A stretch of DNA of 56,579 nucleotides, taken from the NCBI GenBank assembly GCA_041648455.1, contig JBAZOZ010000003.1, positions 1-56,579 on the forward strand, given 5' to 3'. The notes below the pieces were generated by a model, which was not told where the DNA came from, did not search any database, and saw only the letters and a program-made list of their open reading frames with translations. Numbering within the stretch: position 1 is the stretch's first letter; every line of letters begins with the position of its first letter. The stretch is from Candidatus Pacearchaeota archaeon (lineage in GTDB: Archaea > Nanobdellota > Nanobdellia > Pacearchaeales > GW2011-AR1). The position numbers were made by a program, and so were the translations under genes. Shown one piece after another: positions 2,878 to 49,247 of this stretch.

Positions 2878-3590
2878 TGGAATTCGAAAAAGTAAAAATT
2901 AATAAAAAACTTTTTTACTGGACATGGAAAGATTTGGATTTTCTGCCTTATGCATGGCTTGAAAAAAAAGATTTGAAAACCCTGCCGACACCTTTTCTTA
3001 TAACTGAAATACATCCAGATTGCCCGGTTGGCTTTGAAACAAAAGAAAAAAACTGGTTTACTAATATAATAAAACTCCCAGACAGCTTTGATAAATTAAG
3101 ACTGGACAACGACTTAAGAAAAGATTTGAAAAGAGTTGAAAAAAAGAATGCAGATGTAAAAATAATCTATAATGAAAAAGATGCGCTTGACAAAAGCAAG
3201 AAATGGTTCTTAGAATTCTGGAAAGAAAATAAAAAAGATTTTCAAAGAAGACTTAAACTATGGAAAGAAAAATGCTGCACAATAAGTGCATATTTAGGAA
3301 AGGAATTAATAGCAGTCCATATCACAATGAAAGAAAAAGATACAGTTTTTTATCTTGGCTGCTGGTGGAACAGGAAATATAGCTCATTATCTACTCCAAC
3401 TTTCTTACTTAAAAAAGATATAGAAAAAGCGATAAGGGATGGAATGAAGTATTACGATCTTGAAGTTGGCGAAGAATCTTACAAGAAAAAATGGGGAGTT
3501 ATTGAAAAACCTACAAAATATTATGCTGTCCTTACAAAAGAGCTGGCTGATTATCTTGAAATAGAAAATTACGTTAGAATAGAAATGTAA
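2877..3590 (+). CDS. GNAT-fold acyltransferase, FemAB/CelD (BioF2-like) type
   Basis: C-terminal GCWWNRKY...YYDLEVGEESYKKKWG pattern is typical of the FemAB/CelD-like acetyltransferase family. Confidence 0.5.
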   Translation: MEFEKVKINKKLFYWTWKDLDFLPYAWLEKKDLKTLPTPFLITEIHPDCPVGFETKEKNWFTNIIKLPDSFDKLRLDNDLRKDLKRVEKKNADVKIIYNEKDALDKSKKWFLEFWKENKKDFQRRLKLWKEKCCTISAYLGKELIAVHITMKEKDTVFYLGCWWNRKYSSLSTPTFLLKKDIEKAIRDGMKYYDLEVGEESYKKKWGVIEKPTKYYAVLTKELADYLEIENYVRIEM

Positions 3591-3664
3591 ATTACTTTGC
3601 ATTATTCAGCGTAGACATTTCCCCCAAACAAATATTTAAAAACAAATTCCTTTTCTTCTTTTTA

Positions 3665-5161
3665 ATGGACTCAAAAAATAATAAACAATCAAAGAATTTT
3701 TTATTTGTATATCCTTTAAAATTATCTGAATGTTCAAGCATAGAAATTCTTTCGGCAGTTCTTAAAAAAGCCGGACACAACACAAGTTTAATTCTTCATC
3801 ACAATCAAGAAAAATATTTTGAGAATAGATTAAAAAAAAGAATTGAAGAATTCAAACCAGACTTCATCGGATTTTCTGTAATGACAACTGATTATGCCTG
3901 GGCATTAAAAACCGCAAACCTCGTAAGAAAATTCACAGCCGCGCCAATTGTCTTCGGTGGAATACAAGTAACTTCCTGTCCAGAAGAAGTAATAAGCCAT
4001 GACTGCGTTGATTTTATTGTCGTAGGAGAAGGGGAAGGGGCTATATTAGAATTAATTGAAAATCCAAAAAAACAAAACATAAAAAATGTCTGGCTAAAAA
4101 AAGATAAAAGGATAATCAAGAACCCATTAAGGCCTTTAATTCAAAATTTAGATTCAATCCCGTTTTTAGACAAGCAACTCTTTTTAAGAGAAGCTCCGCA
4201 TTTCAAAGAATTATATGTTTGCATGACTGGAAGGGGCTGTCCTTTTTCCTGCACATATTGTTTTAATTGCTTTATGAGAAATTTATATCCTGGAGAAAAA
4301 TGGGTGAGGAAAAGAAGCGTGCAAAATGTTATTGAAGAATTGAAATTAGCAAAACAAAAAATAAATCCAAAAACCATTTTATTTATTGATGATTGTTTTA
4401 CAAGCCACAAAGAATGGCTCTTGGAATTTTTAAAAATATACCAAAAAGAAATCAACCTTCCTTTCAAGGTTCTTACACATCCAAATTTTGTCAATGATGA
4501 GATGTTATCAGCATTAAAAAAATCCAAATGCGTTAGCATTGAATTAGGAGTTCAAACACCGTCGGAAAGAGTAAGGAAAGATATATGCAAAAGAAACGAG
4601 AGCAACGAATTAGTCAAAGAAGTTGTTCAGAAAATAAAAAACCACAAAATGTTCGTTCTAACCGACCATATTTTTCAACTCCCTTCAACAACATTTGAAG
4701 AATATGAAAAAGGTTTGGAGTTTTATATTGACATCAAGCCAAGTAAAATCACCCAATTCTGGCTTCAATATTATCCAAACACAGAAATAGTTGAAATAGG
4801 AAAAAAATACGGCGAATACACGGACAAAGAACTAAAAGAAACAATTAAGGGAAACATTGTCTGGGATGAACACAATCAAAGAAAAATAAAAGCAAATCCA
4901 GAACTCGCATATATAGCAAGATTTATTTGCTGGATTCCGATTTTGCCGAGGAGTGCCAGCAGATATCTTCTGAGAAAAAGATTATACAGAAAAATTTTCT
5001 TCACAGATAATTTAAATGTTGTTCCATACATATTGAAATATCTTTCTTCCTTCAGCACAATCCCAGTCACATTGAGGGCGTTGAAAAGAACAATCATAAT
5101 GAAAAGATATTTAACACAATTGAATAAAGAAGGTGAAATGAATTCGGAATACAAAAATTGA
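3665..5161 (+). CDS. B12-binding-domain radical SAM protein (COG1032 type), paralog 1
   Basis: N-terminal Rossmann-like B12 domain (FIGFSVMTTDY...VFGG) followed by GRGCPFSCTYC (CxxxCxxC). Confidence 0.8.
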   Translation: MDSKNNKQSKNFLFVYPLKLSECSSIEILSAVLKKAGHNTSLILHHNQEKYFENRLKKRIEEFKPDFIGFSVMTTDYAWALKTANLVRKFTAAPIVFGGIQVTSCPEEVISHDCVDFIVVGEGEGAILELIENPKKQNIKNVWLKKDKRIIKNPLRPLIQNLDSIPFLDKQLFLREAPHFKELYVCMTGRGCPFSCTYCFNCFMRNLYPGEKWVRKRSVQNVIEELKLAKQKINPKTILFIDDCFTSHKEWLLEFLKIYQKEINLPFKVLTHPNFVNDEMLSALKKSKCVSIELGVQTPSERVRKDICKRNESNELVKEVVQKIKNHKMFVLTDHIFQLPSTTFEEYEKGLEFYIDIKPSKITQFWLQYYPNTEIVEIGKKYGEYTDKELKETIKGNIVWDEHNQRKIKANPELAYIARFICWIPILPRSASRYLLRKRLYRKIFFTDNLNVVPYILKYLSSFSTIPVTLRALKRTIIMKRYLTQLNKEGEMNSEYKN

Positions 5162-5250: not shown

Positions 5251-5285
5251 GTCGCCTTCGGCAGATTAATTCACTTTAAAATACC

Positions 5286-5342
5286 TTAATGCATTAGAAT
5301 TCTGATTTAGTGAATAACATGACGAAATCTGTTATGAGCAAT
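5286..5342 (+). repeat. SR-2 short repeat, copy i
   Basis: TTAATGCATTAGAATTC..TTAGTGAATAACATGACGAAATCTGTTATGAGCAAT. Internal hairpin TAACA/TGTTA. Confidence 0.6.
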
Positions 5343-5372
5343 TAATTGTAAACAAAGTGAACAGAATATCTT

Positions 5373-5497
5373 TAATACAGCAAAAATTGTTTTTTGCGTA
5401 AACTCCCTGTTTTAACTCGTGAGAAAGCAAAAACAATTTTTGGAGTGTTCAAGAACCCGAGACACGCCCAGAAATTTATTCCGAGGGTTCTTGACAT
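5373..5497 (+). repeat. 125-nt two-hairpin element, copy 1
   Basis: TAATACAGCAAAAATTGTTTTTTGCG...GCAAAAACAATTTTTGG (about 17-bp stem) plus TCAAGAACCC...GGGTTCTTGA (10-bp stem), ending CTTGACAT. Confidence 0.9.
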
Positions 5498-5535
5498 TTT
5501 TAAACGAATAATTTTACAAAACCAATCTACATAAT

Positions 5536-5546
5536 CTTTATAAATT
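5536..5546 (+). promoter_or_regulatory. TATA-box-like motif upstream of radical SAM paralog 2
   Basis: CTTTATAAATT is centred about 25 nt upstream of the ATG at 5566. Same spacing as other first genes here, which suggests leaderless mRNA. Confidence 0.35.
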
Positions 5547-5565
5547 ATTATAACAAATCTAAATT

Positions 5566-6987
5566 ATGAGAATTTTATTTTTAAGTCCTCCAAGTAAAAA
5601 TGATCTTTTTCCTCCACTGGGAATAGCATACATAACTGCTCTCTTGAATAAAAATAATCACGAAGCGATAATAAAAGAAGGAAATAATAGTTCTTTCAAG
5701 GAACTTTTAGAAGCTGTTAGAAAAACAAAACCAGATATCGTAGGTATAACCATGAATACCAACACAAGATTCGTCGGACTAAAAATTGCTAAGGAAATTA
5801 AAGAGAAATATAAAATTCCAATTGTTCTCGGAGGACCTCACCCAACACTAATGACTGACCAAATTCTAAAAAATTATCCTTTTGTGGATTATATTGTAAG
5901 AAACGAGGGAGAATACACAACACTTAATTTATTGGATTGTTTAGAAAAAAAAACCGAGTTAAAAAAAGTAAAAGGAATTTCTTACAGAACAAACGGAGAA
6001 ATAATCCATAACGAAAATGCAGAACCAATTATAGATTTAGATTCCCTTCCATACCCCGAATATAAATTTTTCAATCTCGCAGGTTATTCCAAAAATCCAG
6101 AACACCCAAAAGAATTATTAAAATATCCTGTAGGAAGTATAATTTCTTCAAGAGGCTGTCCATATAGATGCACCTTTTGTTCCAGTTCTATTTTTTGGGG
6201 AAGTAAAATAAGATTCAGAAAACCCCAATGTGTTGTTGATGAAATGGAACAATTATATAATAAATATAACACAAAGTACATTGTATTTAACGACGATAAT
6301 TTTACCACAGATAAGAAAAGAACAATTGAAATTTGCAAATTGATAATTAAAAAAGGGCTCGACAAAAAAATAGCCTGGCTTTGCAGAGCAGAAGTTAATA
6401 TCGTAGATTTGGAGCTTTTAACCTGGCTAAAAAAAGCAAACTGCCACACCATCGAATACGGCGTCGAAGACGCAAGCCCAGAAGGATTAAAATTTTTTAA
6501 AAAAGCACATACAATGGAACAGGCTTACAAGGCGTTTGAATTAACTAATCAAATTGGACTGGCTACAAGAAGTTACTTTATCATAGGTGGAGATCACGAA
6601 ACTCCCGAGAATATAGAATTAAAAAAACGGGCTATAGAAAAATTAAATCCAACAATAACAACCGCATCATTATTAATTGCATATCCCGGAACAGAAATAT
6701 ATGAAATCGGCAAAAAAAGAAGATTATGGGATGATTCTATCTGGCTCAAACCATGCATCGGAAAAAATTTTCATAACCATATTCCGATATATCCAAGCAA
6801 AAATATGAGTTTGGGACAATTATTTTCAGCGTCGGCAGATATCGATTATTGGTGGAACAGAAAGAAAGGAAACTTCAGTCTAAAAGTTAAGATTAAAACT
6901 CTCAAAGATCTTTTAAGAAAAAGAGATTTTTCAAAAATATACTGGATGAGCAAATCCGTTCTTCTCAGAAGCTTGAATGGTTCTTAA
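5566..6987 (+). CDS. B12-binding-domain radical SAM protein, paralog 2
   Basis: IVGITMNTNTR...VLGGPH B12-like domain followed by SRGCPYRCTFC. Confidence 0.8.
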   Translation: MRILFLSPPSKNDLFPPLGIAYITALLNKNNHEAIIKEGNNSSFKELLEAVRKTKPDIVGITMNTNTRFVGLKIAKEIKEKYKIPIVLGGPHPTLMTDQILKNYPFVDYIVRNEGEYTTLNLLDCLEKKTELKKVKGISYRTNGEIIHNENAEPIIDLDSLPYPEYKFFNLAGYSKNPEHPKELLKYPVGSIISSRGCPYRCTFCSSSIFWGSKIRFRKPQCVVDEMEQLYNKYNTKYIVFNDDNFTTDKKRTIEICKLIIKKGLDKKIAWLCRAEVNIVDLELLTWLKKANCHTIEYGVEDASPEGLKFFKKAHTMEQAYKAFELTNQIGLATRSYFIIGGDHETPENIELKKRAIEKLNPTITTASLLIAYPGTEIYEIGKKRRLWDDSIWLKPCIGKNFHNHIPIYPSKNMSLGQLFSASADIDYWWNRKKGNFSLKVKIKTLKDLLRKRDFSKIYWMSKSVLLRSLNGS

Positions 6988-6991
6988 AAAC

Positions 6992-7116
6992 ATGTCAAGA
7001 ACCCTCGGAATAAATTTCTGGGCGTGTCTCGGGTTCTTGAACACCCCAAAAATTGTTTTTGCTTTCTCACGAGTTAAAACGGGGAGTTTACGCAAAAAAC
7101 AATTTTTGCTGTATTA
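6992..7116 (-). repeat. 125-nt two-hairpin element, copy 2 (inverted relative to copy 1)
   Basis: The reverse complement differs from copy 1 at 2 positions. It starts 5 nt after the radical SAM stop and lies 30 nt beyond the PC4-like gene stop. Confidence 0.9.
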
Positions 7117-7146
7117 ATCTTGCGAAGCAAAAAATTAAAGATTAAA

Positions 7147-7440
7147 TTAATAGTCCGGCATCTCATCGAGGGTTTCTTGATTTTTTGGAAGTTTTTTTGC
7201 TTCCGGCTTGTCTTTCTTTTCAGAATCTTTCATATCTTCCAAATCAATTGAATTAATCATTTCTCTGAATTTCAGAAAATCTGGCGCGAGAATTCTTACT
7301 CCTGATTTTGTGAAACCAGTATATTTGTCGCTTGTAACAAATTCCCTTATTGTCAATCCCACTCTTCCTCCGAAATCGTCAAGTCTTAAGATTATGTCTG
7401 AGGTTTCGTTTTTATTCAATTTTCCAATGTCTTTTTCCAT
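7147..7440 (-). CDS. PC4/p15-like ssDNA-binding transcriptional coactivator family protein
   Basis: RLDDFGGRVGLTIREFVTSDKYTGFTKSGVRI resembles the PC4 fold signature. Acidic/basic C-terminal tail. Confidence 0.45.
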   Translation of the reverse strand: MEKDIGKLNKNETSDIILRLDDFGGRVGLTIREFVTSDKYTGFTKSGVRILAPDFLKFREMINSIDLEDMKDSEKKDKPEAKKLPKNQETLDEMPDY

Positions 7441-7472
7441 GTCTGCTTGAAGAATAAAGATTATTTAAATAT

Positions 7473-8018
7473 TTAGATTATACTTGCTTTTATTATTCTT
7501 ATTTCCTGCAATGGTTTGTCGTTCGAATCTGTTTTGACTTTTCCAATCGCTTCAATAATATCCATTCCATTTATTACTTTTCCGAAAACTGGGTGTTTTC
7601 CGTCGAGATAATTGTTATCTGCTAAATTTATGAAGAATTGACTGCCCCCAGTATTCGGGCCTGCGTTTGCCATTGCTAGTGTTCCTCTGTTGTTTTCATC
7701 TAAATTTGTTTCTGTAAACTCATCTTTTATATTATAACCTGGACCACCCATTCCAGTTCCAGTTGGATCTCCTCCCTGAATCATGAATCCGTCAATAACT
7801 CTGTGGAAAATTACTCCATCATAAAACCCTTGTTTCACAAGTTTTTCAAAATTACCCGCTGTTATGGGCATTTCTTTTGAATAGAGTTCTATTGTTATAT
7901 CTCCTTTGGTTGTTTCTAATAGTATTTTTGTATTCTTGTTTGACATTTTATATACTGTTCCTGCAATTATTAAAATCAAAATTATCAGTGTTATAAATAT
8001 TATTGATTTCTTATTCAT
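7473..8018 (-). CDS. Cyclophilin-type peptidyl-prolyl cis-trans isomerase with N-terminal membrane anchor
   Basis: FHRVIDGFMIQGGDPTGTGMGGPGY and GTLAMANAGPNTGGSQFFI. Hydrophobic N-terminus IIFITLIILILIIA. Confidence 0.9.
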   Translation of the reverse strand: MNKKSIIFITLIILILIIAGTVYKMSNKNTKILLETTKGDITIELYSKEMPITAGNFEKLVKQGFYDGVIFHRVIDGFMIQGGDPTGTGMGGPGYNIKDEFTETNLDENNRGTLAMANAGPNTGGSQFFINLADNNYLDGKHPVFGKVINGMDIIEAIGKVKTDSNDKPLQEIRIIKASII

Positions 8019-8108
8019 GAAAAATAGAAAAGGAATTTGTTTTTAAATTTTTGTTTTCAGCAAAACATTTAATAATCTGTTATTTTTTATAGTTAGGTAA
8101 AAGAGAGC

Positions 8109-8969
8109 ATGGAAGAAGAACAAATTTCAAAAAAAGGGTTGGAAGTATATTTTTATTATTGGACGCTACCTGCGTTTTTTATATTTTTGATTCTAATCAA
8201 TTATGTTGTTCATTATAATATTCCCTCCTTGGATTTGAATTTGATGATTTCTGTTGTTTCTTTTTTGTTTGGTTTTTTAATAACAATTTCTTTTTCGATG
8301 CTTTGGAGCAGAGTTTCTTCGTTGAAGGCATCTCTTGCTATTGAGACTGGAAGACTTGTAAGCCTTTTTGAATTGTCAAAACATCTCGGAAAAAAATTCA
8401 ACGAGAAAGTTAGAGAACACATTGATAATTATACAGTTAATACTTTAAGAGATTACACTAATTATGATGTTGGAAGAGAATCAATTTATGGAATTTATAA
8501 TGATTTAGATGAAATGGAATTAAAAACGGAATCTCAAAAACAGGCGGCTTCTTCTTTTCTTTATATTCTTGGAGAATTCGAGCCATTAAGAGAACAACTG
8601 GAATATTTGACTAAAGGGGGATTATTGTGGGCATTGAAATTTGCAAATTACGCGCTCGCTGTGATTTTAATTTCTCTTTTATTTTTAAACACCGGAAGTT
8701 TATTCAATAACTGGCTTTTTGTTGTTCTCTCGACGGTTATTGTCTTTATAATTTTAATTATTGAGGATTACGAGGCTTTGAGAATCGGCGATTATACTGT
8801 GAACATAAGCAACTCTGAACAAATATTTGATTTGATTGGAGAGAAAAGATATTATCCAAGAAGATTGTTGAAAAGAGTTAGACTCGAAAGAGGACAGGTT
8901 TACAGAGTCGGTGTTTATGACCCGTCGATAAAAAAAGAACGCATAGTTAATATGAGATATAAGAAGTGA
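8109..8969 (+). CDS. Hypothetical multi-pass membrane protein
   Basis: 286-aa ORF with hydrophobic segments near both ends. No motif recognised. Confidence 0.5.
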   Translation: MEEEQISKKGLEVYFYYWTLPAFFIFLILINYVVHYNIPSLDLNLMISVVSFLFGFLITISFSMLWSRVSSLKASLAIETGRLVSLFELSKHLGKKFNEKVREHIDNYTVNTLRDYTNYDVGRESIYGIYNDLDEMELKTESQKQAASSFLYILGEFEPLREQLEYLTKGGLLWALKFANYALAVILISLLFLNTGSLFNNWLFVVLSTVIVFIILIIEDYEALRIGDYTVNISNSEQIFDLIGEKRYYPRRLLKRVRLERGQVYRVGVYDPSIKKERIVNMRYKK

Positions 8970-9147
8970 TTGGATAATTTTTAGTTTGAGATAAATTTAC
9001 TCGCATTCCCACTCACCACAGATAATATATAATTTACTTTGTTCTCATGCAAATGTTCGTAGATTAATTCGCTGAGGAGATTGTTAATGTACATAAATTC
9101 AGAATTATTCGTTTAGCTTAGTTTTTTATTGTTAGGTTATCATTTTT

Positions 9148-9175
9148 CTTGACGGAAATTCGTGACGAAGTCTGA
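9148..9175 (+). repeat. SR-2-related short repeat, partial copy v
   Basis: CTTGACGGAAATTCGTGACGAAGTCTGA matches CTTAACGGAAATTCATGACGAG at 49019. Confidence 0.45.
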
Positions 9176-9224
9176 ATTGGAGTTAAATATTTTATTACAA
9201 ATCAATTTAATACAGAATAAACAA

Positions 9225-9386
9225 TTATATCTGCCCGTTTTGAACGAATTTTTTCATTGCTTGCTCGACGATAACTTGCGGAGCAAAACCTTTTCTGCTG
9301 CACATTTTTACAAATTCATCGTAAACTTTTCTATCGATGTTGTAATCAATTCTTGCTTTTTGCGGTCCCGGTGGATATGATGCCAT
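9225..9386 (-). CDS. Small ribbon-helix-helix (CopG-like) protein, 53 aa
   Basis: MASYPPGPQKARIDYNIDRKVYDEFVKMCSRKGFAPQVIVEQAMKKFVQNGQI shows a beta-strand plus two-helix RHH pattern. Preferred over the opposite-strand track ORF 9162..9380. Confidence 0.45.
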   Translation of the reverse strand: MASYPPGPQKARIDYNIDRKVYDEFVKMCSRKGFAPQVIVEQAMKKFVQNGQI

Positions 9387-9445
9387 GTTTTAATTAATTA
9401 AAATGTATTTATAAATGTTATTTAATTAAAATAGAAAATTATTGA

Positions 9446-9796
9446 TTATTTTTTAATGAAGATTCTAGAATATAATTCTTGAAATTCTCTTTCTCTAGCG
9501 AGTATTATTACGGAATCTCTAATATTTGTTTCTTGTTTATCTAAAAGAACTCTTTTTAATTTCCGTTTTCTTCCTCTTGCTAAATTTGAATCATCAATAA
9601 CTTTTTCAAGAGAGTATTTTGTATTTAGATTTTCAGCAATATATTTTCCAACCTTCTTAAAGAAAGAAGGGGAATTGTTATACAAATTGTTTTTCAATTC
9701 AGATAAATCTATTCCCGTCAATCCAGCAAGATTATGAATTCCTTTTTCATAAAAAGATTTTTCTTCGTCTGTTAAATAGTTTCTTAATTTACCCAT
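9446..9796 (-). CDS. Hypothetical protein
   Basis: 116-aa ORF, no motif recognised. Confidence 0.4.
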   Translation of the reverse strand: MGKLRNYLTDEEKSFYEKGIHNLAGLTGIDLSELKNNLYNNSPSFFKKVGKYIAENLNTKYSLEKVIDDSNLARGRKRKLKRVLLDKQETNIRDSVIILAREREFQELYSRIFIKK

Positions 9797-9895
9797 AGAA
9801 ATATATTTATCAAATGCTTATTAATAATTATTATACTAAAGAGCATAAATAAATTTACTACTTTAATTAAGTACATTCTTGTGATTTTATCTTTT

Positions 9896-10020
9896 TAATA
9901 CAGCAAAAATTGTTTTTTGCGTAAACTCCCTGCTTTAACTCGTGAGAAAGCAAAAACAATTTTTGGGGTGTTCAAGAACCCGAGACACGCCCCGGAATTT
10001 ATTCCGAGGGTTCTTGACAT
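9896..10020 (+). repeat. 125-nt two-hairpin element, copy 3
   Basis: Near-identical to copies 1 and 2. The variable positions fall in the two hairpin loops (CCCTGCTTT; CGCCCCGGAATTT). Confidence 0.9.
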
Positions 10021-10078
10021 TATCTTTAATCGACTTTTATTCTAACCCCACCAGAATTAATAAATTAAATATTTCCTT

Positions 10079-10172
10079 TTATGCATTAATAATTTCTTAG
10101 CGAATAATCATGACAAAGATCTGATTATGAGCAATACATTCTCGCGAACTTTGTGAGCGAGCAATTTCACGA
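10079..10172 (+). repeat. SR-2 short repeat, copy ii (long form)
   Basis: TTATGCATTAATAATTTCTTAGCGAATAATCATGACAAAGATCTGATTATGAGCAAT...GTGAGCGAGCAATTTCACGAAAC. Hairpin TAATCA/TGATTA. Confidence 0.6.
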
Positions 10173-10222: not shown

Positions 10223-10344
10223 ACAGAAAATATGAAAAACAAAAAGTTTTTCATCCCATGGAAATCAAAGATTTCCAAGTCATCCAATTCTCCCGAATTG
10301 GAGACATTCAAAACAAGAAATTTTGAAGGTAGAAAATTTTCTGT
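10223..10344 (+). repeat. Nested palindrome cluster: PE closing stem enclosing four tandem perfect hairpins
   Basis: ACAGAAAAT (10223-10231) pairs with ATTTTCTGT (10336-10344). Inside are ATGAAAAAC/GTTTTTCAT, GGAAATC/GATTTCC, CCAATTC/GAATTGG and TTCAAAA/TTTTGAA. Confidence 0.8.
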
Positions 10345-10369
10345 CCTTTAAACTTCAAAGAAATTCAAA

Positions 10370-10708
10370 GTGAAAAAAAACTCGTGGGTAACAGTCGGAA
10401 TTGTAATTGCAGTAATAATTCTTGCATATTTCTTAATTAATAAACCAAAACCAGAAACTCCTGAAGCAATTACAAAATGCATAGGTGAAAAATCAACATT
10501 GTATGTTCAGCTCGGATGTTCTCATTGCAAAGACCAGGAAGACATGTTTGGAGATAATTTAAAGTATATAAAAATTATTGATTGTTTTTACGAAAGAGAT
10601 AAATGTTTAGAAAAAGAAATTGCAGGAACTCCAACTTGGATAATTAACGGAGAAAAAATAGAAGGGGTTCAAACTATTGAGAAATTAAAAGAGTTAGCAA
10701 ATTGTTAA
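10370..10708 (+). CDS. Membrane-anchored thioredoxin-fold protein (CxxC)
   Basis: N-terminal TM helix, GCSHCKDQ active-site-like motif, GTPTW cis-Pro region. Confidence 0.65.
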   Translation: MKKNSWVTVGIVIAVIILAYFLINKPKPETPEAITKCIGEKSTLYVQLGCSHCKDQEDMFGDNLKYIKIIDCFYERDKCLEKEIAGTPTWIINGEKIEGVQTIEKLKELANC

Positions 10709-11410
10709 ATGGTAGATTTAAATTTTATTAAGATAACGAGTTTGGCTTTAGCCGACGCTGTCAATCCATGCGAGATGGCTGTTCTAATTATGGTTCTTGT
10801 AACAATTTTAATTCAACATCCCGAAAAAAGAAAAAAAGTTCTTTATGCTGGCTTGGCATTCAGTTCTGCAATTTATATTGGATACTTATTCTATGGAATT
10901 GTTCTAATTGAATTATTCAAAACTTTCGCGGAATTTTTGAGAGAGAATTCTTTTTATTTTTATAATGGATTGGCAATTCTGGCAATGATTATTGGAGCAT
11001 TAAATATAAGAGATTTTTTTTATTATAAGAGGGGCGGATTAGCAACAGAGATGCCGATTTTCCTACGTCCAAAAGTAAAAAGAATAATTAGTAGTATAAC
11101 TTCTCCATCTGGAGCTTTTGTGATTGGTTTCATCGTAACAATATTCTTATTGCCATGCACTATGGGTCCATATATAGTTGCATCCGGACTTTTAGCAGAA
11201 ATCGGAATCTTGAAAGCACTTCCTTGGCTTCTTTATTATAATTTAATTTTTATCCTGCCAATGTTAATAATTACTTTCGTTGTTTATTTCGGTTTCAAAG
11301 AAGTCGACGAAGTTTCTGGATGGAAAGAAAGAAATATAAAAATTCTTCATCTAATCGCAGGAATTTTATTGTTTGCTGTCGGTGTTGCTATGTTAATGAA
11401 TTGGATATAA
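10709..11410 (+). CDS. CcdA/DsbD-family thiol-disulfide electron transport membrane protein
   Basis: ALADAVNPCEMAVL and LLPCTMGPY, each a conserved Cys in a TM helix. Start abuts the thioredoxin gene stop. Confidence 0.7.
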   Translation: MVDLNFIKITSLALADAVNPCEMAVLIMVLVTILIQHPEKRKKVLYAGLAFSSAIYIGYLFYGIVLIELFKTFAEFLRENSFYFYNGLAILAMIIGALNIRDFFYYKRGGLATEMPIFLRPKVKRIISSITSPSGAFVIGFIVTIFLLPCTMGPYIVASGLLAEIGILKALPWLLYYNLIFILPMLIITFVVYFGFKEVDEVSGWKERNIKILHLIAGILLFAVGVAMLMNWI

Positions 11411-11419
11411 AAATTCTAA

Positions 11420-11707
11420 TCAATACTTCGATGAATTATCTCTTTCACAAATTTCACATTCATAAATATCATCTCCTCTAGAAAGTCCTCCTCTTGGGCT
11501 TCTTCCCAGATGTTTCATACTCATACAATCACAAGAAGTACATATTTTTTCTCCATGCTCTGTTCTTGGACGAGCCTCCTTTATCTGCTCATGAAGTTTA
11601 GTGATTGCAGATTTATATTGATAAATTTGCTCGAGCAAACCTTTCTTTTTCTTTTCAAATTTTTCACGCTGTGCAATGTACTCTAGCTTTTTATCCCGTT
11701 CTGTCAT
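11420..11707 (-). CDS. Coiled-coil plus zinc-ribbon protein (hypothetical)
   Basis: CTSCDC ... CEIC cysteine pairs after a charged helical N-terminus. Confidence 0.45.
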   Translation of the reverse strand: MTERDKKLEYIAQREKFEKKKKGLLEQIYQYKSAITKLHEQIKEARPRTEHGEKICTSCDCMSMKHLGRSPRGGLSRGDDIYECEICERDNSSKY

Positions 11708-11747
11708 CTTTATTCAACAAGTATATAATTTATAAGAATTATTGTGA

Positions 11748-12047
11748 TTAATAATTAGATAATAAAGAATTATGCCCAAACTGAATTACTAAATCAATTT
11801 TCTTTTCAATTTCTTTTCCTAAAACCGGCGTATCACAAGCACCATAGCAGCTCCCAAGCCAAATCAAAAAATCAACTTCCTTAGTTTTTTCTTCAAGAAA
11901 ATCCACAACTGCAGTCGCATATTGCTTCAATCCATCAGGAAACTGCAATAAAACAAGTTTTGCTTTATTCTTCTTAATTTCATCTAAAACTTTCTCTAAT
12001 TCCAAATCATATCTCTCGTTTAAATCTTCAATGGTGTAGTTTTTCAT
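11748..12047 (-). pseudogene. dph2: Diphthamide synthase Dph2 remnant (N-terminal ~99 aa only)
   Basis: AKLVLLQFPDGLKQYA...GSCYGACD...VIQFGH matches the Dph2 N-terminus. Full-length archaeal Dph2 is about 330-340 aa, and the ORF stops just after the FGH motif. Confidence 0.6.
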
Positions 12048-12125
12048 GATGGGGCAAAAATAATAATCTTTTTATAGCTTTTGTAAAACCAAAAAACATA
12101 AAAACCCAAAAATACTGATAATTTT

Positions 12126-12174
12126 GTCTAACTTCGGTTGGACACGGAAGGGCAGAACTTCGGTTTTCCCTTCC
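12126..12174 (+). other. Two adjacent GC-rich hairpins, each capped by UUCG (read on + strand)
   Basis: GTCTAAC-TTCG-GTTGGAC (7 bp) and GGAAGGG..AAC-TTCG-GTT..CCCTTCC (7-bp outer stem). The direct repeat AACTTCGGTT occurs twice. Confidence 0.5.
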
Positions 12175-12183
12175 ACTTATATT

Positions 12184-12585
12184 CTAAAACATTAACTTAA
12201 TTATATAATAACCAATTCCTGTGCTTAATACTCCAAACAAAAATCCATAACTAATTTTCTTCTTTTCATAATTCAAATAAACCAAAGAGCAAATCAATAC
12301 AAGATAAACTAAAACCGCGAAAATTGTGAATATCTTATCATTATAAAACAAAATTGTAAAAACCAATATCACAAAACTAAGTCCAGAATATAAATTACTC
12401 TTAAATAAAAATGTGAGTATTAAAAACAAACCACCTGCAATAGCAAACTGACTAAGATATTCTAAATCATGAATTATCCAAATTCTCACAAGTACAAGTA
12501 CAAAAAAAGGAATACTCCCCAACGCTAAAAAATCCCGTGCAAATTCCTTGCAAATATTTTGTTTCTTCATGAAATAATTAAACAC
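12184..12585 (-). CDS. Hypothetical integral membrane protein
   Basis: 133 aa, four hydrophobic segments. Confidence 0.5.
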   Translation of the reverse strand: MFNYFMKKQNICKEFARDFLALGSIPFFVLVLVRIWIIHDLEYLSQFAIAGGLFLILTFLFKSNLYSGLSFVILVFTILFYNDKIFTIFAVLVYLVLICSLVYLNYEKKKISYGFLFGVLSTGIGYYIIKLMF

Positions 12586-12599
12586 TTAAACTTTAAAAA

Positions 12600-13027
12600 T
12601 TACTCTTTTTTTACTCTCTCAGCTACAAAAGGTAATCCAAAATTAGAAAGCATTTTCTCCAATCTTCTTAAGGTAAAAGCCATTAATTTTAATTTATATG
12701 GACCATTAGGATAAGGAAAACCAGACATGTCAAGAACCCTCGGAATAAATTCCTGGGCGTGTCTCGGGTTCTTGAACACCACAAAAATTGTTTTTGCTTT
12801 CTCACGAGTTAAAGCAGGGAGTTTACGCAAAAAACAATTTTTGCTGTATTAACAATTCCATCAGGAAAAAAATAATATCCTTCAACAATCTTTTTTCCAC
12901 CCCCCTTAACTTTTTGGTAAACATCTAAAAGAGATTTTTGATAAACAAATCCCTTCAAAGCAGAATTACTATTGATAGTACAATAATTAATAGAATAAAA
13001 AGCTTTAGCTATAATTTTCTTTTTATC
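12600..13027 (-). pseudogene. ORF split by 125-nt element copy 4 (about 100 codons once the element is removed)
   Basis: The upstream frame 13027..12852 ends ...VEGYYFFPDGI plus GT. Removing 12727-12851 joins that GT to G12726 and continues in frame as SGFPYPNGPYKLKL...VKKE stop. No ATG at the 5' end (internal TTG only). Confidence 0.5.
12727..12851 (-). repeat. 125-nt two-hairpin element, copy 4 (inverted relative to copy 3)
   Basis: Full-length copy. It supplies the first 34 codons of track ORF 12600..12830, plus the AT of that ORF's internal ATG (residue 35, completed by flanking G12726). Confidence 0.9.
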
Positions 13028-13032
13028 CTAAA

Positions 13033-13041
13033 CTTTAAAAA
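13033..13041 (+). promoter_or_regulatory. TATA-box-like motif upstream of infB
   Basis: CTTTAAAAA is centred about 28 nt upstream of the ATG at 13065. Confidence 0.35.
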
Positions 13042-13064
13042 CAAATCTATATTGAAGAACATAT

Positions 13065-14822
13065 ATGGAACAAAAAATTCGTCAGCCAATTGTAACAGTA
13101 TGCGGGCACGTTGATCATGGAAAGACATCTATCCTTGATTGTCTTAGAAATAGCTGTGTCCAGGAATCAGAAGCAGGAGGAATCACTCAAAAAATTTCTT
13201 TCACTCTTTATCCCATAAATCAATTAAAAAAAGCCTGCCCTTTGATAGAATCGTCCGGGATAAAACTAAACATCCCAGGATTTCTTTTAATAGACACACC
13301 AGGACACGCAGCATTCATAAATTTAAGAAAAAGGGGCGGCAGCCTCGCTGACTTGGCAGTTTTAGTAATCGACATAAACGAAGGAATAAAACCACAAACA
13401 GCAGAAGTAATTCAAATTTTAAAACTAAATAAAACACCTTTCATCATTGCATTAAATAAAATCGATAACATTTCTGGATGGAGAACTGACAAAAATTTAG
13501 GATTAAAAGAATCAATAGAAAAGCAACCGCAAAATGTCAAGCAAATTTTTCAGGAAAGATATATGACTTTAATCGGCTCGTTAAACAGCTATGGATTCGA
13601 AGCTGATTTATTTTATAACATAGAAGATTTCACAAAAAAAATTGCTTTAGTTCCGTGCAGTGCAAAAACAAAACAAGGAATTCCAGAATTAATTATGATG
13701 CTCTGCGGATTAAGCCAGAAATATCTCGGTGAAAAATTAAAACTCGGTGAAGATGCAAAAGGAGTAATGCTTGAAATAAAAAAAGACAAAGCAATAAATT
13801 ATTGCGAAGCAATTCTCTACGACGGAACACTAAAAAAAACAGACGAGATTGCCGTATCAAATTTCGAGGGAAATCCAATTATAACAAAAATAAGAATCCT
13901 AGAAGAAATAGAACCCCTATGCAAAAAATTTTCTCCAAGAACAAAAGTAACAGCGTCGACGGGATTAAGAATTCAATTAATCACTAAAGAAGAAATTCTT
14001 CCCGGAATGCCATTCGAAATTTACCAAAATAATCTCGAAGAAATAAAAAAAAGATTCAAGAAAGAAATTTCAGAAAATATTAAAACAGAAAAGCAAGGAA
14101 TAATTGCAAAAGCAGATTCTTTGGGAAGTTTAGAAGCACTTTTAGTCTTGCTAAATCAAAGCAACGTGCCCGTCGTAAAAGCAGGAATAGGAAGTATAAA
14201 TAAAACAGACATAATCAACGCCAAAGCAAATTTAGACATAAATGAATTAGACGCAGTCATCGTTGGATTTAATGTTAAAATTGATGAAGATGCCGAAGAG
14301 CTTGCAAGAAATAACAAATCAATTAAAATAATTACAGAAGAAGTTATCTACAAATTAATTGAAAACCTCGTCGAATTCAGAAAAGATAAATCTTCAGAAA
14401 TTGAAAAAAGAAGATTAATGGAACTAACAACAATTTGCAAGGCAAAAATTCTGCATCAGTATGTTTTCAGAAACACCAGCCCGGCAATTTTCGGTGTGAG
14501 AATCGAAGCTGGAAAATTAAAATCTGGATTAAATATGATAAATGAAAAAGGGGAAAAAGTCGGAAGAATAAAAAACATTCAATCCGAAAACAAATCGGTT
14601 GAAGAAGCCGCTCAGGGAATGGAAGTTGCAATTTCAATTCCAGGAATAAATTTTGAAAGAGTTTTAGGCGACAGAGAAACTCTCTATTCAGATATTGGAG
14701 AAGGACAATTCAAAAAATTCAAGAAGAACAAAGATTTGCTTAACGAAGGAGAAAAAAGAACCTTGCAGGAAATTAATGAGATTAAAAAGTTTGGAAGTTG
14801 TCTGCGCTTAGGCGCAGTTTAG
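13065..14822 (+). CDS. infB: Translation initiation factor aIF5B (IF-2 homolog)
   Basis: GHVDHGKTSILD, IDTPGHAAF, NKID GTPase motifs. Length and domain order are typical of aIF5B. Confidence 0.9.
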   Translation: MEQKIRQPIVTVCGHVDHGKTSILDCLRNSCVQESEAGGITQKISFTLYPINQLKKACPLIESSGIKLNIPGFLLIDTPGHAAFINLRKRGGSLADLAVLVIDINEGIKPQTAEVIQILKLNKTPFIIALNKIDNISGWRTDKNLGLKESIEKQPQNVKQIFQERYMTLIGSLNSYGFEADLFYNIEDFTKKIALVPCSAKTKQGIPELIMMLCGLSQKYLGEKLKLGEDAKGVMLEIKKDKAINYCEAILYDGTLKKTDEIAVSNFEGNPIITKIRILEEIEPLCKKFSPRTKVTASTGLRIQLITKEEILPGMPFEIYQNNLEEIKKRFKKEISENIKTEKQGIIAKADSLGSLEALLVLLNQSNVPVVKAGIGSINKTDIINAKANLDINELDAVIVGFNVKIDEDAEELARNNKSIKIITEEVIYKLIENLVEFRKDKSSEIEKRRLMELTTICKAKILHQYVFRNTSPAIFGVRIEAGKLKSGLNMINEKGEKVGRIKNIQSENKSVEEAAQGMEVAISIPGINFERVLGDRETLYSDIGEGQFKKFKKNKDLLNEGEKRTLQEINEIKKFGSCLRLGAV

Positions 14823-17318: not shown

Positions 17319-17386
17319 GAAGGAAAACAAAATAAGAAGTATGAAAGGTTTTAGCTCCCTTTAACGTTACAATGCACCCCAACAAA

Positions 17387-18339: not shown

Positions 18340-18413
18340 CATGTTCCCCCAACAAAAACTTTTAAAAACCTATTTTCTCAATCATATTCATAACTAAATT
18401 TTAATTTAGCAAA

Positions 18414-25621: not shown

Positions 25622-25676
25622 AAGTTAAAAACAACAAATTACTTTTTAAAAATTATTATTCTTCAACAATCACATT

Positions 25677-25745
25677 ATCACGAACTTCTTGTATTTTTTA
25701 GAAGTTTGTGAGACAGAAAATTCAATTTTCATTTTCTGTAGTATC
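25677..25745 (-). repeat. PE palindromic element at the gyrA 3' end (PE-a)
   Basis: Both PE hairpins are present. The last gyrA codons DTTENEN and the TGA stop lie in hairpin 1 and its loop. Confidence 0.8.
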
Positions 25746-28244: not shown

Positions 28245-28309
28245 TTTCTTGCTCCTCCTCCTGAAATTGGAAGGCTAGAAAATTTCTTATTTTCTTTGTC
28301 GTCAGCCAT
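28238..28309 (-). CDS. Candidate 23-codon upstream ORF overlapping the gyrA start
   Basis: GGAGGT-12 nt-[26 protein letters not shown], with the TAG overlapping TTGGTAG at the gyrA start. Out of frame with gyrA. Confidence 0.3.
28241..28297 (-). repeat. PE-related two-hairpin element forming the gyrA leader (PE-b)
   Basis: AGAAAAT-AAGAA-ATTTTCT hairpin, then CCAATTTC-AGGAGGAGGAGCAA-GAAATTGG. The second stem contains the gyrA TTG start and its loop contains the SD-like sequence. Confidence 0.7.
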
Positions 28310-44210: not shown

Positions 44211-44232
44211 CTTAAAAATTTCCCGTTTTTAA

Positions 44233-49110: not shown

Positions 49111-49236
49111 ATGTCAAGAACCCTCGGAATAAATTCCGGGGCGTGTCTCGGGGTTCTTGAACACCCCAAAAATTGTTTTTGCTTTCTCACGAGTTAAAAC
49201 AGGGAGTTTACGCAAAAAACAATTTTTGATGTATCA
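49111..49236 (-). repeat. 125-nt two-hairpin element, copy 5
   Basis: Full-length copy with 1 extra G, starting 11 nt after the DUF192 gene stop. Confidence 0.9.
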
Positions 49237-49247
49237 ATATGCGAACG

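Follow-up and report, generated by a model that had tools for sequence, protein, structure and literature searches.

What kind of sequence is a folded repeat of about 125 nt that recurs between the genes of an archaeon, and how did its copies come to lie there? The question is raised by a stretch of 56,579 nt from a Candidatus Pacearchaeota archaeon (contig JBAZOZ010000003.1, hereafter the window), in which such a repeat occurs five times. The genomes of DPANN archaea are very small and streamlined, and little of their mobile DNA has been catalogued; this lineage nevertheless holds a recently expanded hairpin element. The reading preferred here, with a probability of roughly 0.55, is that the repeat is a non-autonomous, PATE-like mobile DNA family in a clade of groundwater Pacearchaeota/Nanoarchaeota (DPANN archaea). 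The family is new, but it represents a kind of element already known and does not point to novel biology.

Copies of the Repeat in the Window

A sequence-only reading of the window had described five near-identical copies, and all of them were recovered by repeat finding and alignment, with 95–98% identity and unrelated flanks. Moreover, a 22-mer of the repeat gave 4 matches at three or fewer mismatches against 0.00 expected (100 shuffles). The five positions stood as given before, except that the conserved block begins one T sooner (TTAATACA...), making a unit of 125–126 nt. The copies are:

5372..5497, plus strand: copy 1, flanked by two B12-radical SAM genes, 126 nt long when the left TTAAT is counted; covariance model score 152.5 bits
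6992..7117, minus strand: copy 2, marking the left boundary of an inverted block
9895..10020, plus strand: copy 3, marking the right boundary of the inverted block; covariance model score 160.8 bits
12727..12852, minus strand: copy 4, between a membrane-protein gene and aIF5B
49111..49237, minus strand: copy 5, 127 nt, with one additional C in hairpin 2 and with TTGAT at the left edge, 10 nt past the stop of a DUF192 gene

As had been counted earlier, copies 1 and 2 differ at two positions, and the extra base that had been seen in hairpin 2 of copy 5 is present, being a C in the alignment. The right end of copy 2 lies 4 nt past the radical SAM stop, and its left end lies 29 nt past the stop of the 97-aa (PC4-like) gene.

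Census, Subfamilies and Distribution

At least 21 copies were found in one population, namely the 5 in the window and 16 full-length copies on 10 contigs of the metagenome Ga0265296, and one further copy lies on a Hainich contig. The sources beyond the window are a JGI metagenome, Hainich groundwater assemblies, an NCBI MAG and another JGI sample, and every copy that does not run off the end of the examined DNA is full length with unrelated flanks. In addition, three diverged subfamilies occur in other groundwater Pacearchaeota/Nanoarchaeota assemblies: B (L017), C (MAG JAUSIT01) and D (L025). Subfamily C was recovered by a degenerate search with the hairpin-2 pattern, and subfamily B was reached through a match in a six-frame protein search, a single read-through ORF. 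On the contigs examined there is about one copy per 10–20 kb. Every copy is intergenic and may take either orientation relative to the neighbouring genes; between tandem gene pairs, about 4 copies are sense and about 4 antisense.

The distribution is patchy. About 145 kb of DNA from relatives contains zero copies, and this DNA takes in syntenic intergenic regions in L013 and L014. In one relative, whose DNA identity is about 82% (90% for the aIF5B protein), the syntenic intergenic regions lack the element, and the intergenic region that holds copy 4 is free of it in L013, L014 and L018. In a collinear Hainich relative the element is present, at another position. Searches of viral contigs and of phage and plasmid collections gave no matches to the element, and a 23-mer scan of GTDB genomes gave none either. 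Solo REP-like hairpins with the element's foot are essentially absent, just two being found in 237 kb.

In the same lineage there are at least two more families of small hairpin repeats. An association of the element with a U hairpin motif was considered and dropped, as a weak U match within 120 nt was seen for about 6 of 27 elements, which is not clearly more than a shared intergenic location would give.

Hairpins and Boundaries

The two-hairpin fold had been read correctly from the letters: both hairpins form as described, and the folding z-scores of the two strands are −3.7 and −3.3 as RNA and −4.7 and −4.4 as DNA. On copy 3, the parts of the element are as follows:

9895..9900, plus strand: left-edge motif TTAATA, family-wide T-[T/C]-[A/G/T]-A-[T/C/G]-A
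9904..9965, plus strand: hairpin 1, a 16-bp A/T-rich stem with a 29-nt loop
9972..10017, plus strand: hairpin 2, with a 10-bp outer stem TCAAGAACCC/GGGTTCTTGA
10014..10019, plus strand: right-end motif TTGACA, invariant in 28 of 28 copies

Hairpin 1 begins 9 nt from the left edge, and hairpin 2 finishes 2–3 nt from the right end. The stem of hairpin 1, CAAAAATTGT(T)TTTTGC / GCAAAAACAATTTTTG, contains one bulged T, and its loop holds a small inner helix (CTC/GAG) together with the conserved motif CTGTTTTAACTC. In the interior of hairpin 2, a conserved unpaired motif, GAGACACGC, is accompanied by a 5-bp inner stem, CGGAA/TTCCG, with the loop TTTA, and this hairpin is near-identical across subfamilies A, B and C. 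The two hairpins stand on a common foot, TCAA[A/G]AA...TT[T/C]TTG, which in subfamily A takes the forms TCAAAAA/TTTTTGG (hairpin 1) and TCAAGAA/TTCTTGA (hairpin 2), while in subfamily D both hairpins have the same 7-bp foot, TCAAAAA/TTTTTGA, and each is followed by TTGAYA. The upper stems and loops of hairpins 1 and 2 are unrelated to each other. A loop–loop pseudoknot between CACG of hairpin 2 and CGTG of loop 1 was also considered, and it was dropped because the complementarity is lost in subfamilies B and D.

At the left edge, positions 2–3 of TTRAY(A) vary like the flanking DNA and account for 2 of the only 5 variable A/T sites; the motif is probably derived from the target, that is to say, a transposon-adjacent motif rather than a part of the moved unit. 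A candidate empty site in L013 reads ...GCAAAATTAGT..., with TTAGT at the matching place, against ...GCAAGATTAAT and then ACAG in the window, a single weak comparison between loci whose flanking genes are about 80% identical in DNA. The right-end TTGACA is similar to the motif at the left edge. Its first four bases, TTGA, form pairs with the TCAA in the foot of hairpin 2, and the base that comes after the motif is T, A or C. In L025, a second hairpin unit abuts the TTGACA of the first element directly, which, like the variable positions 2–3 and the L013 site, is suggestive of a left motif that comes from the target.

Terminal inverted repeats (TIRs) are absent, the left end TTAATACAKC and the reverse-complemented right end, TGTCAAGAAC, not matching. 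In the flank profiles of 21 copies no bases recur on the two sides of the element, so no target-site duplication (TSD) was found, and information content is at background level directly beyond TTAAT...TTGACA. The ends and the flank profiles agree with the earlier judgement that the repeat is not a classical MITE.

Sequence Evolution of the Copies

The phylogeny of the copies is a star with a master sequence at its centre. Two copies, L004 and L008a, are identical to the consensus, and the remaining copies are 1–7 private changes away from it. Individual copies undergo an approximately neutral decay from GC to AT, and recent ones show stem mutations that are not compensated, as well as one insertion in a stem and one in a loop. 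Variable sites make up 19 of the 49 G/C positions against 5 of the 76 A/T positions, so that variability follows G/C content and not pairing. The observation that substitutions fall mainly in the loops was correct, and it is largely accounted for by base composition, because the stems, that of hairpin 1 above all, are A/T-rich and A/T sites vary less. Selection on individual copies was set aside, the stems not being significantly poorer in variable sites once G/C content is allowed for.

Between subfamilies, the pattern is one of kept structure. In subfamilies B, C and D all four helices are kept, although 12 of the 35 pairs are changed on both sides; none of 500 shuffles reached 12 such double changes, and slid controls gave 0–3. 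In the hairpin 1 stem 6 of 16 pairs are changed on both sides, and in hairpin 2 the same holds for 2 outer and 3 inner pairs. The four helices evolve by compensatory change between subfamilies, which is a constraint on the active lineage. The structure supported in this way by covariation, in the form of a covariance model, can be used as a probe for the missing transposase or RNA partner.

In DNA palindromes, template-switch (quasi-palindrome) mutation can also give compensatory change without selection. The template/variable repeats of a DGR were considered as well and were rejected, as the substitutions are not adenine-specific and the copies are intergenic.

A Probable Non-Autonomous Mobile Element

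A non-autonomous mobile element had been among the roles first suggested for the repeat, and this suggestion is supported by the star phylogeny, the patchiness, the absence from syntenic regions and the other position in the collinear relative. In the proposed mechanism, the moved unit would be about 119–125 nt long and would encode nothing, consisting of two near-terminal hairpins with a common foot; TTRAY(A) would precede or begin it at the left edge, and TTGACA would form its right end. An enzyme supplied in trans may recognise the folded hairpins in single-stranded DNA and would presumably cut beside both TTRAYA motifs, and it would most likely be an HUH/Y1 transposase of the IS200/IS605 type. 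Insertion would take place in A/T-rich DNA between genes, on the 3′ side of a TTRAY(A) site, and the target would not be duplicated.

PATEs are defined as elements with no TIRs, with near-terminal palindromes, with no target duplication, too short for a transposase, and with a 4–5-bp targeting sequence at the 5′ end (PMC3119063). They are gene-less derivatives of IS200/IS605 (IS605/IS1341-type) elements, described in Haloquadratum walsbyi (PMC3119063) and in Geobacillus (PMC10055086), and both their action in trans and the TAM/TEM logic of IS200/IS605 are set out in PMC10055086. The present element is like them in that it lacks TIRs and target duplication, is too short for a protein, is intergenic and has an archaeal host. 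Moreover, there is a palindrome near each end, the two being related, and a conserved oligonucleotide at the 5′ boundary and at the 3′ end; the copies also correspond to the "homogeneous" PATE families that are >90% identical. It differs from them in that an IS605-type transposon, or a tnpA/tnpB, sharing its ends was not found in the loci scanned, and its palindromes are large compound hairpins with 16-bp and 10-bp stems and structured loops of 26–29 nt. Its left motif is 3–4 nt from hairpin 1, whereas the 5′ distance in PATEs is normally the longer one; its neighbouring copies are not co-oriented, and its host is a DPANN archaeon with a small genome.

Pfam scans for a partner covered 30 ORFs of the window and 98 ORFs from related loci. 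Neither tnpA, tnpB nor another plausible partner was found in the window, at the 11 loci from its population or at those of JAUSIT01 (about 240 kb, from incomplete genomes). The sole transposase found belongs to an rve/IS481-like IS at 17381–18345, which has its own TIRs and is unrelated to the element. The searches also turned up no longer element with the same ends, and BLAST with end fragments returned only a solo left-end fragment of 23 nt (L002, 3139–3161) beside ordinary genes. If the partner is a TnpA/TnpB pair of IS200/IS605, the element offers a compact PATE that occurs naturally in DPANN; if no IS200/IS605 partner exists, its mobilisation mechanism is worth pursuing.

Orientation bears on the mode of movement. 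Ton-Hoang et al. are said to have found in 2010 that IS608 and ISDra2 are strongly biased to the lagging-strand template. Here, 5 pairs of neighbouring copies are opposed and 4 are co-oriented (9 pairs, an indirect comparison that uses neighbouring copies in place of the direction of replication), and with this mixed orientation a strictly IS608-like mode does not fit. Furthermore, the element differs from IS608 in that its left motif is 3–4 nt from hairpin 1 and its right motif overlaps the foot of hairpin 2, and in that its hairpins have large structured loops with covarying inner helices, which are more typical of functional RNA. Co-orientation within a replichore is a property of IS608/ISDra2 and is not part of the PATE definition.

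Comparison with Other Repeats

The earlier suggestion of a REP/ERIC-like structured repeat holds insofar as the repeat is dispersed and structured. It resembles the REP/BIME/REPIN sequences of bacteria, which RAYT transposases (domesticated and IS200-like) move, as a short intergenic hairpin sequence with star-like populations, as a rearrangement substrate and, under the proposed mechanism, as a trans-mobilised single-stranded hairpin. It fails on the features of REPs and REPINs, since REPs are palindromes of 20–40 nt with a conserved 5′ GT[A/G]G, usually in inverted doublets that form one long hairpin, whereas the element has two different hairpins side by side and few solo hairpins, and no Y1 transposase/RAYT was seen in the loci scanned. 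Similarly, ERIC (127 bp) is like the element in its length of about 125 nt, intergenic location, structure and occurrence in either orientation. However, it is one long imperfect palindrome, restricted to enterobacteria, situated in transcribed regions and highly conserved at orthologous sites between species, whereas the element folds into two hairpins that are independent of each other, and its distribution is patchy and burst-like.

Classical MITEs, including archaeal ones, are likewise small, non-coding, multi-copy and intergenic and need a transposase in trans, but they have TIRs and usually target-site duplications, both of which were tested for and are absent in the element. The attC sites of integrons (the 123–126-nt Vibrio cholerae repeats) are of similar length, recombine as a folded single strand and adjoin gene "cassettes". 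In contrast to the element, the ends of attC pair (R″/R′, L″/L′) into a single bulged hairpin and keep one orientation per array, beside intI; the ends of the element are unpaired, its two hairpins are separate, its orientation is mixed, no integrase is nearby, and what lies between copies 3 and 4 is ancestral synteny.

Other Possible Machinery for Movement

The repeat could be a mobile element and still be moved by other machinery, such as a site-specific recombinase acting on a TTRAYA core (IS607-, IS110- or integrase-like), a rolling-circle HUH/Y2 enzyme (IS91- or Helitron-like) or a domesticated RAYT-like enzyme of the kind that serves REP/REPIN elements. This is regarded as unlikely. The terminal motifs, TTRAYA at the left and TTGACA at the right, are imperfect direct copies of each other and could be the two copies of a recombination core; the lack of TIRs and TSDs is compatible with such enzymes, the mixed orientation suits a mechanism that works on double-stranded DNA or independently of replication, and tnpA was not found in the loci scanned. 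The right end, TTCTTGACA, also resembles the CTTGATA nick site of rolling-circle origins of the pC194/phiX174 type. However, serine, tyrosine and DEDD recombinases need no hairpins, yet compensatory change has preserved the four helices here. A long target motif is common to IS110-type elements, while the flanks here share only 5–6 nt; no such recombinase lies beside any copy, and solo REP-like hairpins are essentially absent.

Readings as a Functional RNA

The host may instead maintain the repeats as small structured RNAs or as RNA modules that act in cis, with roles in regulation, termination or RNA stability, so that their multiplicity would reflect function and not transposition. This reading, judged rather improbable, draws on the same fold: all four helices covary, the inner ones included; the unpaired motifs CTGTTTTAACTC and GAGACACGC are conserved; hairpin 2 is almost unchanged from subfamily A to C; and the folding z-scores range from −3.3 to −4.7. 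In addition, T5–T6 tracts on both strands could terminate archaeal transcription. Against it, the copies show no preferred orientation toward the flanking genes, and their flanks are unrelated, hence without a common upstream promoter. Recent copies carry the uncompensated stem mutations and the stem and loop insertions mentioned above, their phylogeny is a star, and the element is patchy among close relatives, whose syntenic intergenic regions lack it. G·T and A·C mismatches number 5 each, and because they are equally frequent neither strand looks favoured.

A role as sRNA, which had been proposed from the letters, or as cis-regulatory element finds no support in orientation, sense and antisense being about equal, nor in a match to Rfam. 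None of the Rfam covariance models, those of ribozymes and omega-RNAs included, matched at its gathering score, the best sub-threshold hits reaching 13–21 bits against thresholds of 36–86. H/ACA, C/D and K-turn readings were rejected by inspection, hairpin 2 being without the two-sided pocket and K-turn of an H/ACA RNA.

It is also conceivable, though again a long shot, that the element, besides being selfish DNA, is an RNA module acting in trans, in which hairpin 2 is transcribed into the flank as a minimal guide scaffold of the omega-RNA type for an RNA-guided or hairpin-specific enzyme of Pacearchaeota, or that the element is moved by a transposase class new to archaea. Either would explain why hairpin 2 is near-invariant including its loops, why the inner helices covary and why no recognisable partner gene was seen. 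As in the omega-RNA/reRNA of TnpB, the right-end hairpin 2 is the most conserved part and ends at the element boundary; a read-out transcript would therefore carry flank-derived sequence. The left-edge motif TTGAT equals the TAM of ISDra2. The element differs from omega-RNA in that the scaffold would be only about 50–120 nt, no tnpB was found, and no Rfam or structural match was obtained.

The Coding Reading and the Assembly

It had been pointed out that one frame begins with TAA and stays open to the terminal ATG, that is, a 41-codon ORF on the other strand. Read as a gene, the repeat would encode, in many copies, a 41-residue peptide on the reverse strand (ATG...TAA), which might for instance serve the neighbouring radical SAM enzymes as a precursor. 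The reverse strand indeed runs from a start codon to TAA exactly over the repeat in 16 of the 20 copies of subfamily A; the variable last base yields ATG, TTG or GTG and never CTG, and on the coding strand copy 2 follows a B12-radical SAM gene at a distance of 4 nt. Nevertheless, this reading is effectively refuted, as became clear when both long frames were translated in all 26 copies. Frameshifts or stops occur in 4 of the 20 recent copies; frames are shifted in copy 5, L010 and subfamily B, L009b has an in-frame stop, internal stops interrupt one short subfamily C copy (L021a) and both long variants, and L007 as well as subfamilies B and C have lost the stop codon. Most substitutions are non-synonymous, with a ratio of about 4 to 2 synonymous ones among the four copies that cluster in the window. 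Gene callers do not call the ORF, the six-frame search across 5.8 billion proteins gave only one read-through ORF, and the majority of copies are not near radical SAM genes.

That the copies are collapsed or misjoined repeats of an assembly is suggested by their high identity and by nothing else, and it is already refuted: the same four copies are present in an independent ENA assembly (L012), independent assemblies, drawn from at least five projects, hold copies with unique flanks, and private substitutions distinguish the copies.

Inversion between Copies 2 and 3

The preferred reading, that of a PATE-like mobile family, is accompanied by one rearrangement at this locus:

7118..9894: inverted block of 2.8 kb, bounded exactly by the inverted copies 2 and 3

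The block holds the 97-aa/PC4-like, PPIase, bestrophin-like, 53-aa and 116-aa genes. Positions 7144–8920 and 9220–9424 of the window match L013 and L014 in reverse, while 10371–14786 match them in the forward direction; relative to Trx/CcdA/aIF5B, the block 7118–9894 is inverted between copies 2 and 3 in comparison with these two relatives. The idea that the repeats serve as a substrate of inversion is borne out by this one 2.8-kb inversion, which lies between copies 2 and 3 and not within the pairs 1/2 or 3/4 that had been highlighted. It is a concrete case of repeat-mediated rearrangement in a Pacearchaeote.

The gene cassette that copies 3 and 4 had seemed to enclose did not hold up: Trx, CcdA, the dph2 remnant and aIF5B have the same order and orientation in relatives without the element, and the block between these copies is ancestral synteny. 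For copies 1 and 2, a cassette that brought in the radical SAM gene is a possible reading. The two adjacent radical SAM genes there are 29% identical, which argues against a recent duplication, and the orthologues of the second gene lie in unrelated neighbourhoods.

Copies of the element and their distribution

By repeat finding and alignment, five copies of a 125-126-nt unit, 95-98% identical, were recovered in the window, as the sequence-only reading had described, except that the conserved block starts one T earlier than it had placed it. Two positions distinguish copy 1 from copy 2, as stated there, and the extra base seen in the second stem of copy 5 is an extra C in hairpin 2.

Copies of the element in the window
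5372-5497, + strand, copy 1
6992-7117, - strand, copy 2
9895-10020, + strand, copy 3
12727-12852, - strand, copy 4
49111-49237, - strand, copy 5

In the alignment, the DNA outside the element is unrelated between these copies immediately beyond both ends, and an element 22-mer with up to 3 mismatches occurs 4 times against 0.00 expected. The G+C of the host genome is about 31%, and the window also holds aIF5B, a dph2 remnant and a presumably intron-containing tRNA gene of 124 nt (56323-56446, +; Rfam 52.9 bits), which was missed by ARAGORN. With the named homologues of aIF5B, these features mark the host as a member of the Pacearchaeota/Nanoarchaeota (DPANN).

A wider census, which had been proposed earlier, revealed many more copies. 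Scanned with an invariant 23-mer, metagenome Ga0265296 yielded 16 on 10 contigs, whose housekeeping genes include alanyl-tRNA synthetase, RNA polymerase B, deoxyhypusine synthase and OapB/OapC, and a Hainich groundwater assembly yielded one; the same 23-mer has no match in GTDB representative genomes or in viral contigs. The first four window copies are reproduced in an independent ENA assembly (L012). Beside the window type (subfamily A), subfamily B is a diverged copy from Hainich well H43 (88-90% identity), reached via a six-frame peptide query; subfamily C comprises five copies in the MAG JAUSIT01 ('Nanoarchaeota archaeon'), found with a degenerate hairpin-2 pattern; and subfamily D, the fourth and most diverged, has a copy on JGI contig Ga0209542_10034870. 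About 145 kb of other relatives contained zero copies, as did phage and plasmid collections. Two of the five subfamily C copies reach a length of 181 nt and have 57 nt inserted in loop 1; the insert folds into hairpins of its own, provides a 7-nt partner GGAGTTT for AAACTCC, and by itself is absent elsewhere in the DNA examined.

Long (181-nt) subfamily C variants in MAG JAUSIT01
L020, 2665-2845, - strand
L021, 2612-2792, - strand

At another locus, L002, a 23-nt solo fragment (3139-3161, -), 22/23 identical to the element's left end (TTAATACATCAAAAATTATTTTT), sits in a 27-nt gap between convergent genes and may be the remnant of a deleted copy.

Ends and hairpins

Both ends are sharp. In the flank profile the conserved part runs from T1 of TTAATACA[G/T]C to ...GGGTTCTTGACA; the next base is semi-variable (T 14, A 6, C 1), and beyond it lies background. 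Neither terminal inverted repeats nor target duplications were detected when the ends and flanks of the copies were compared, in agreement with the sequence-only reading, and its two-hairpin fold was reproduced by folding, with z = -3.7 and -3.3 for the two strands as RNA and -4.7 and -4.4 as DNA. Hairpin 1 has an A/T-rich stem of 16 bp with one bulged T; in its 29-nt loop lie a small inner helix and a conserved motif, CTGTTTTAACTC. Hairpin 2 has a 10-bp stem (TCAAGAACCC/GGGTTCTTGA) enclosing a conserved unpaired motif GAGACACGC, an inner 5-bp stem and the loop TTTA. The two hairpins have a common foot: TCAAAAA...TTTTTGG and TCAAGAA...TTCTTGA in subfamily A, and TCAAAAA...TTTTTGA in both feet of subfamily D, each followed by TTGAYA. 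Family-wide, the left edge reads T-[T/C]-[A/G/T]-A-[T/C/G]-A, and the right end is invariably TTGACA, whose TTGA pairs with the TCAA foot. At the subfamily D locus L025, a solo hairpin-1-like unit at 6117-6150 (ACATCAAAAATTC...GAATTTTTGG) directly abuts the TTGACA end of the copy, and its left arm is closer to subfamily A than to subfamily D.

Sequence evolution of the copies

The subfamily A copies form a star phylogeny, in which L004 and L008a match the consensus exactly, against 1-7 private changes (mean about 2.5%) in each of the others. Copy 1 is nearest to copy 2 and copy 3 to copy 4, a kinship consistent with local transposition or gene conversion. Variable sites make up 19/49 of the G/C positions versus 5/76 of the A/T positions, an excess that is the GC-to-AT decay expected at 31% G+C; because of this decay, variation is seen in the G/C-rich loops and not in the A/T-rich hairpin 1 stem, which also accounts for the earlier, correct observation that substitutions fall mostly in the loops. 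The recent copies L002a, L005 and L007 have uncompensated stem mutations, and recent indels include the stem insertion in copy 5 and a loop insertion in L010.

Between subfamilies the pairing is kept. Covariation, for which a test had also been proposed earlier, was assessed on 28 copies in an alignment fitted to the model: 95.4% of cells are paired and both sides changed in 12/35 pairs (hairpin 1, n=6; its inner helix, n=1; hairpin 2, n=2 plus 3), the changes representing three independent lineages only. Not one of 500 shuffles reached 12, and slid controls gave 0-3. A further caveat is that template switching can also self-correct DNA palindromes. Overall, the multiplying lineage is under constraint and its dispersed progeny are not, which is how a master-copy mobile element behaves.

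Insertion sites

All copies are intergenic and occur in every arrangement relative to genes (upstream, downstream or between them); within tandem gene pairs they lie sense and antisense about equally often. Three adjoin tRNA 3' ends, not clearly above chance. The closest relative by aIF5B is L013 (90% protein, about 82% DNA; same ENA sample), and L014 and L015 are 81% relatives; all three have the window's gene order PPIase, 97-aa/PC4, Trx, CcdA, dph2, aIF5B, and none of them has a copy. Collinearity with the Hainich relative extends from CcdA to aIF5B, and the copy there lies between dph2 and CcdA, a different site from that of copy 4 (membrane-protein gene/aIF5B). Only five A/T sites vary, and positions 2-3 of the left-edge motif account for two of them; 3' of the 97-aa gene L013 reads ...TTGCTTGGCAAAATTAGTGAAATC... 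versus ...TTGCTTCGCAAGATTAAT|ACAG... in the window. Together with the abutting unit at L025, these comparisons tentatively suggest that TTRAY(A) may be a pre-existing target, 3' of which the element would insert.

At L007 a copy (3644-3769) lies directly downstream of the origin-associated oapB/oapC (3101-3505), and a Cdc6 gene lies within one of the four JAUSIT01 loci (L020-L023, 2.8-8 kb each). Judging by these neighbours, part of the family may lie near replication origins.

Inversion and gene cassettes

Comparison of synteny with L013 and L014, a check named by the sequence-only reading, exposed a reversed block. The reverse matches are window 7144-8056 and 8061-8920 with L013 and 7147-7941 and 9220-9424 with L014, and 10371-14786 matches both forward; therefore, the block of 97-aa, PPIase, bestrophin-like, 53-aa and 116-aa genes is turned round with respect to Trx/CcdA/aIF5B. 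It is bounded by copy 2 (-) and copy 3 (+), and since two outgroups have the other arrangement, the inversion arose in the window's lineage. It is most simply explained by homologous recombination between the inverted copies 2 and 3. One inversion can thus be demonstrated as caused by the family. The suspected role as an inversion substrate holds for copies 2 and 3, not within the pairs 1/2 and 3/4 that had been highlighted. The cassette proposed between copies 3 and 4 falls away, because the genes there are in ancestral order. Copies 1 and 2 may have brought in the radical SAM gene between them, whose orthologues stand in unrelated neighbourhoods elsewhere; the radical SAM gene next to it is a paralogue of only 29% identity.

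B12-binding radical SAM paralogues in the 56-kb window
3665-5161, 29% identical to the adjacent 5566-6987
5566-6987, between copies 1 and 2
44381-45826, third paralogue

Mechanism and classification

The family is real and previously undescribed, and consists of small hairpin mobile elements of groundwater Pacearchaeota. Palindrome-associated transposable elements (PATEs), gene-less relatives of IS200/IS605, lack terminal inverted repeats, carry a palindrome near each terminus, insert without duplicating the target, are too small to hold a transposase and have at the 5' boundary a targeting sequence of 4-5 bp (PMC3119063); the anatomy of the element matches this definition. It also resembles the IS200/IS605 family in the TAM/TEM logic of left target-adjacent and right end motifs (PMC10055086). 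Because of these two matches, we infer that the element would be mobilised in trans by an HUH/Y1 transposase, moving as folded single-stranded DNA after cuts next to the two TTRAYA motifs. For this explanation as a whole, single-stranded route included, we put the probability at roughly 0.55. That the element is a non-autonomous mobile element is, as a claim by itself, probable; an IS200/IS605-type mechanism specifically is tentative and somewhat doubtful. Against the HUH/Y1 route count the failure to find tnpA or tnpB in the roughly 240 kb examined and the failure to find a longer element with the same ends. IS608 and ISDra2 show lagging-strand bias; unlike them, neighbouring copies of the element are often opposed (5/9 pairs), and its motifs lie nearer to the hairpins than those of IS608. 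The element is best classed as PATE-like, its partner enzyme being only putative.

Because inner helices and unpaired motifs are conserved too, the element may also have an RNA role; a right-end scaffold resembling omega-RNA, which has been reported for some PATEs, would be one example. The family would matter more if the partner enzyme were unusual or the right half a guide-RNA scaffold. The element is not a known RNA: Rfam gave no match at the gathering score, nor with relaxed thresholds. Nor is it a gene: the open frame noted earlier, ATG...TAA on the reverse strand, spans exactly the repeat in most subfamily A copies, but it is shifted in copy 5, L010 and subfamily B and interrupted by a stop in L009b, in a short subfamily C copy (L021a) and in both long variants, its substitutions are mostly non-synonymous, and gene callers assigned no gene to it.

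Other repeats and genes nearby

A second, more numerous small hairpin family, V (ATACAGAAAAT-nnn-ATTTTCTGTCTCACAAACTTC...GAAGTTCGTGAT), gave 26 nhmmer hits in about 190 kb, and a third conserved hairpin motif, U, of about 60 nt, reads TAGCGAATAATCATGAC...TCTGATTATGAGCAA. The V copies listed are not exhaustive for the window; others lie in L001, L003, L006, L007, L008, L011 and L018.

V and U copies
Window 47312-47394, 49556-49639, 29368-29450, - strand, V
Window 25675-25752, 44220-44266, 28258-28307, - strand, V
Window 10325-10368, + strand, V
Window 10076-10144, 5285-5349, + strand, U
L013 1236-1303, 4079-4141, U

Three window V copies are in frame within ORFs, like Rickettsia palindromic elements: one as an insertion in Kae1/TsaD (TENKKFSVSQTPGTQGVRD), one at the N-terminus of a DUF192 protein and one at the C-terminus of a zinc-ribbon protein. 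Other copies lie at, or just upstream of, gene starts. The 7-bp stem of U varies compensatorily between copies (ATAATCA/TGATTAT, ATAATTA/TAATTAT, ATAACA/TGTTAT); several weak U matches occur in L011, L005 and L017, and weak copies are often 20-120 nt from the 125-nt element.

An IS481/IS3-like insertion sequence (17381-18345), unrelated to the element, has imperfect 29-nt terminal inverted repeats, flanks CCCC(C)AAC and a 284-aa rve (DDE) transposase with an HTH domain (ORF 17415-18269, -), and is missing at the L014 syntenic site upstream of the S6e gene. Small GIY-YIG nuclease genes occur in relatives (L013 888-1139; L026 21072-21326), that of L013 between the bestrophin-like gene and PPIase, where the window spacing is only 4 nt. 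A giant ORF of 2285 residues (35858-42715, -), with no Pfam hits among its neighbours, probably encodes a repetitive surface protein, because it has diverged internal repeats (36945-39323, spaced 1827 nt and 261-270 nt). Finally, a 47-nt sequence, AAATCTCCCTAACCCGAACACTTCTGTTTGACATTCGGCGTGGGCGT, occurs three times (328-374, 1131-1177, 2337-2383, +; 87% and 64% identity) near the starts of consecutive genes in the DUF2283/Fic region.
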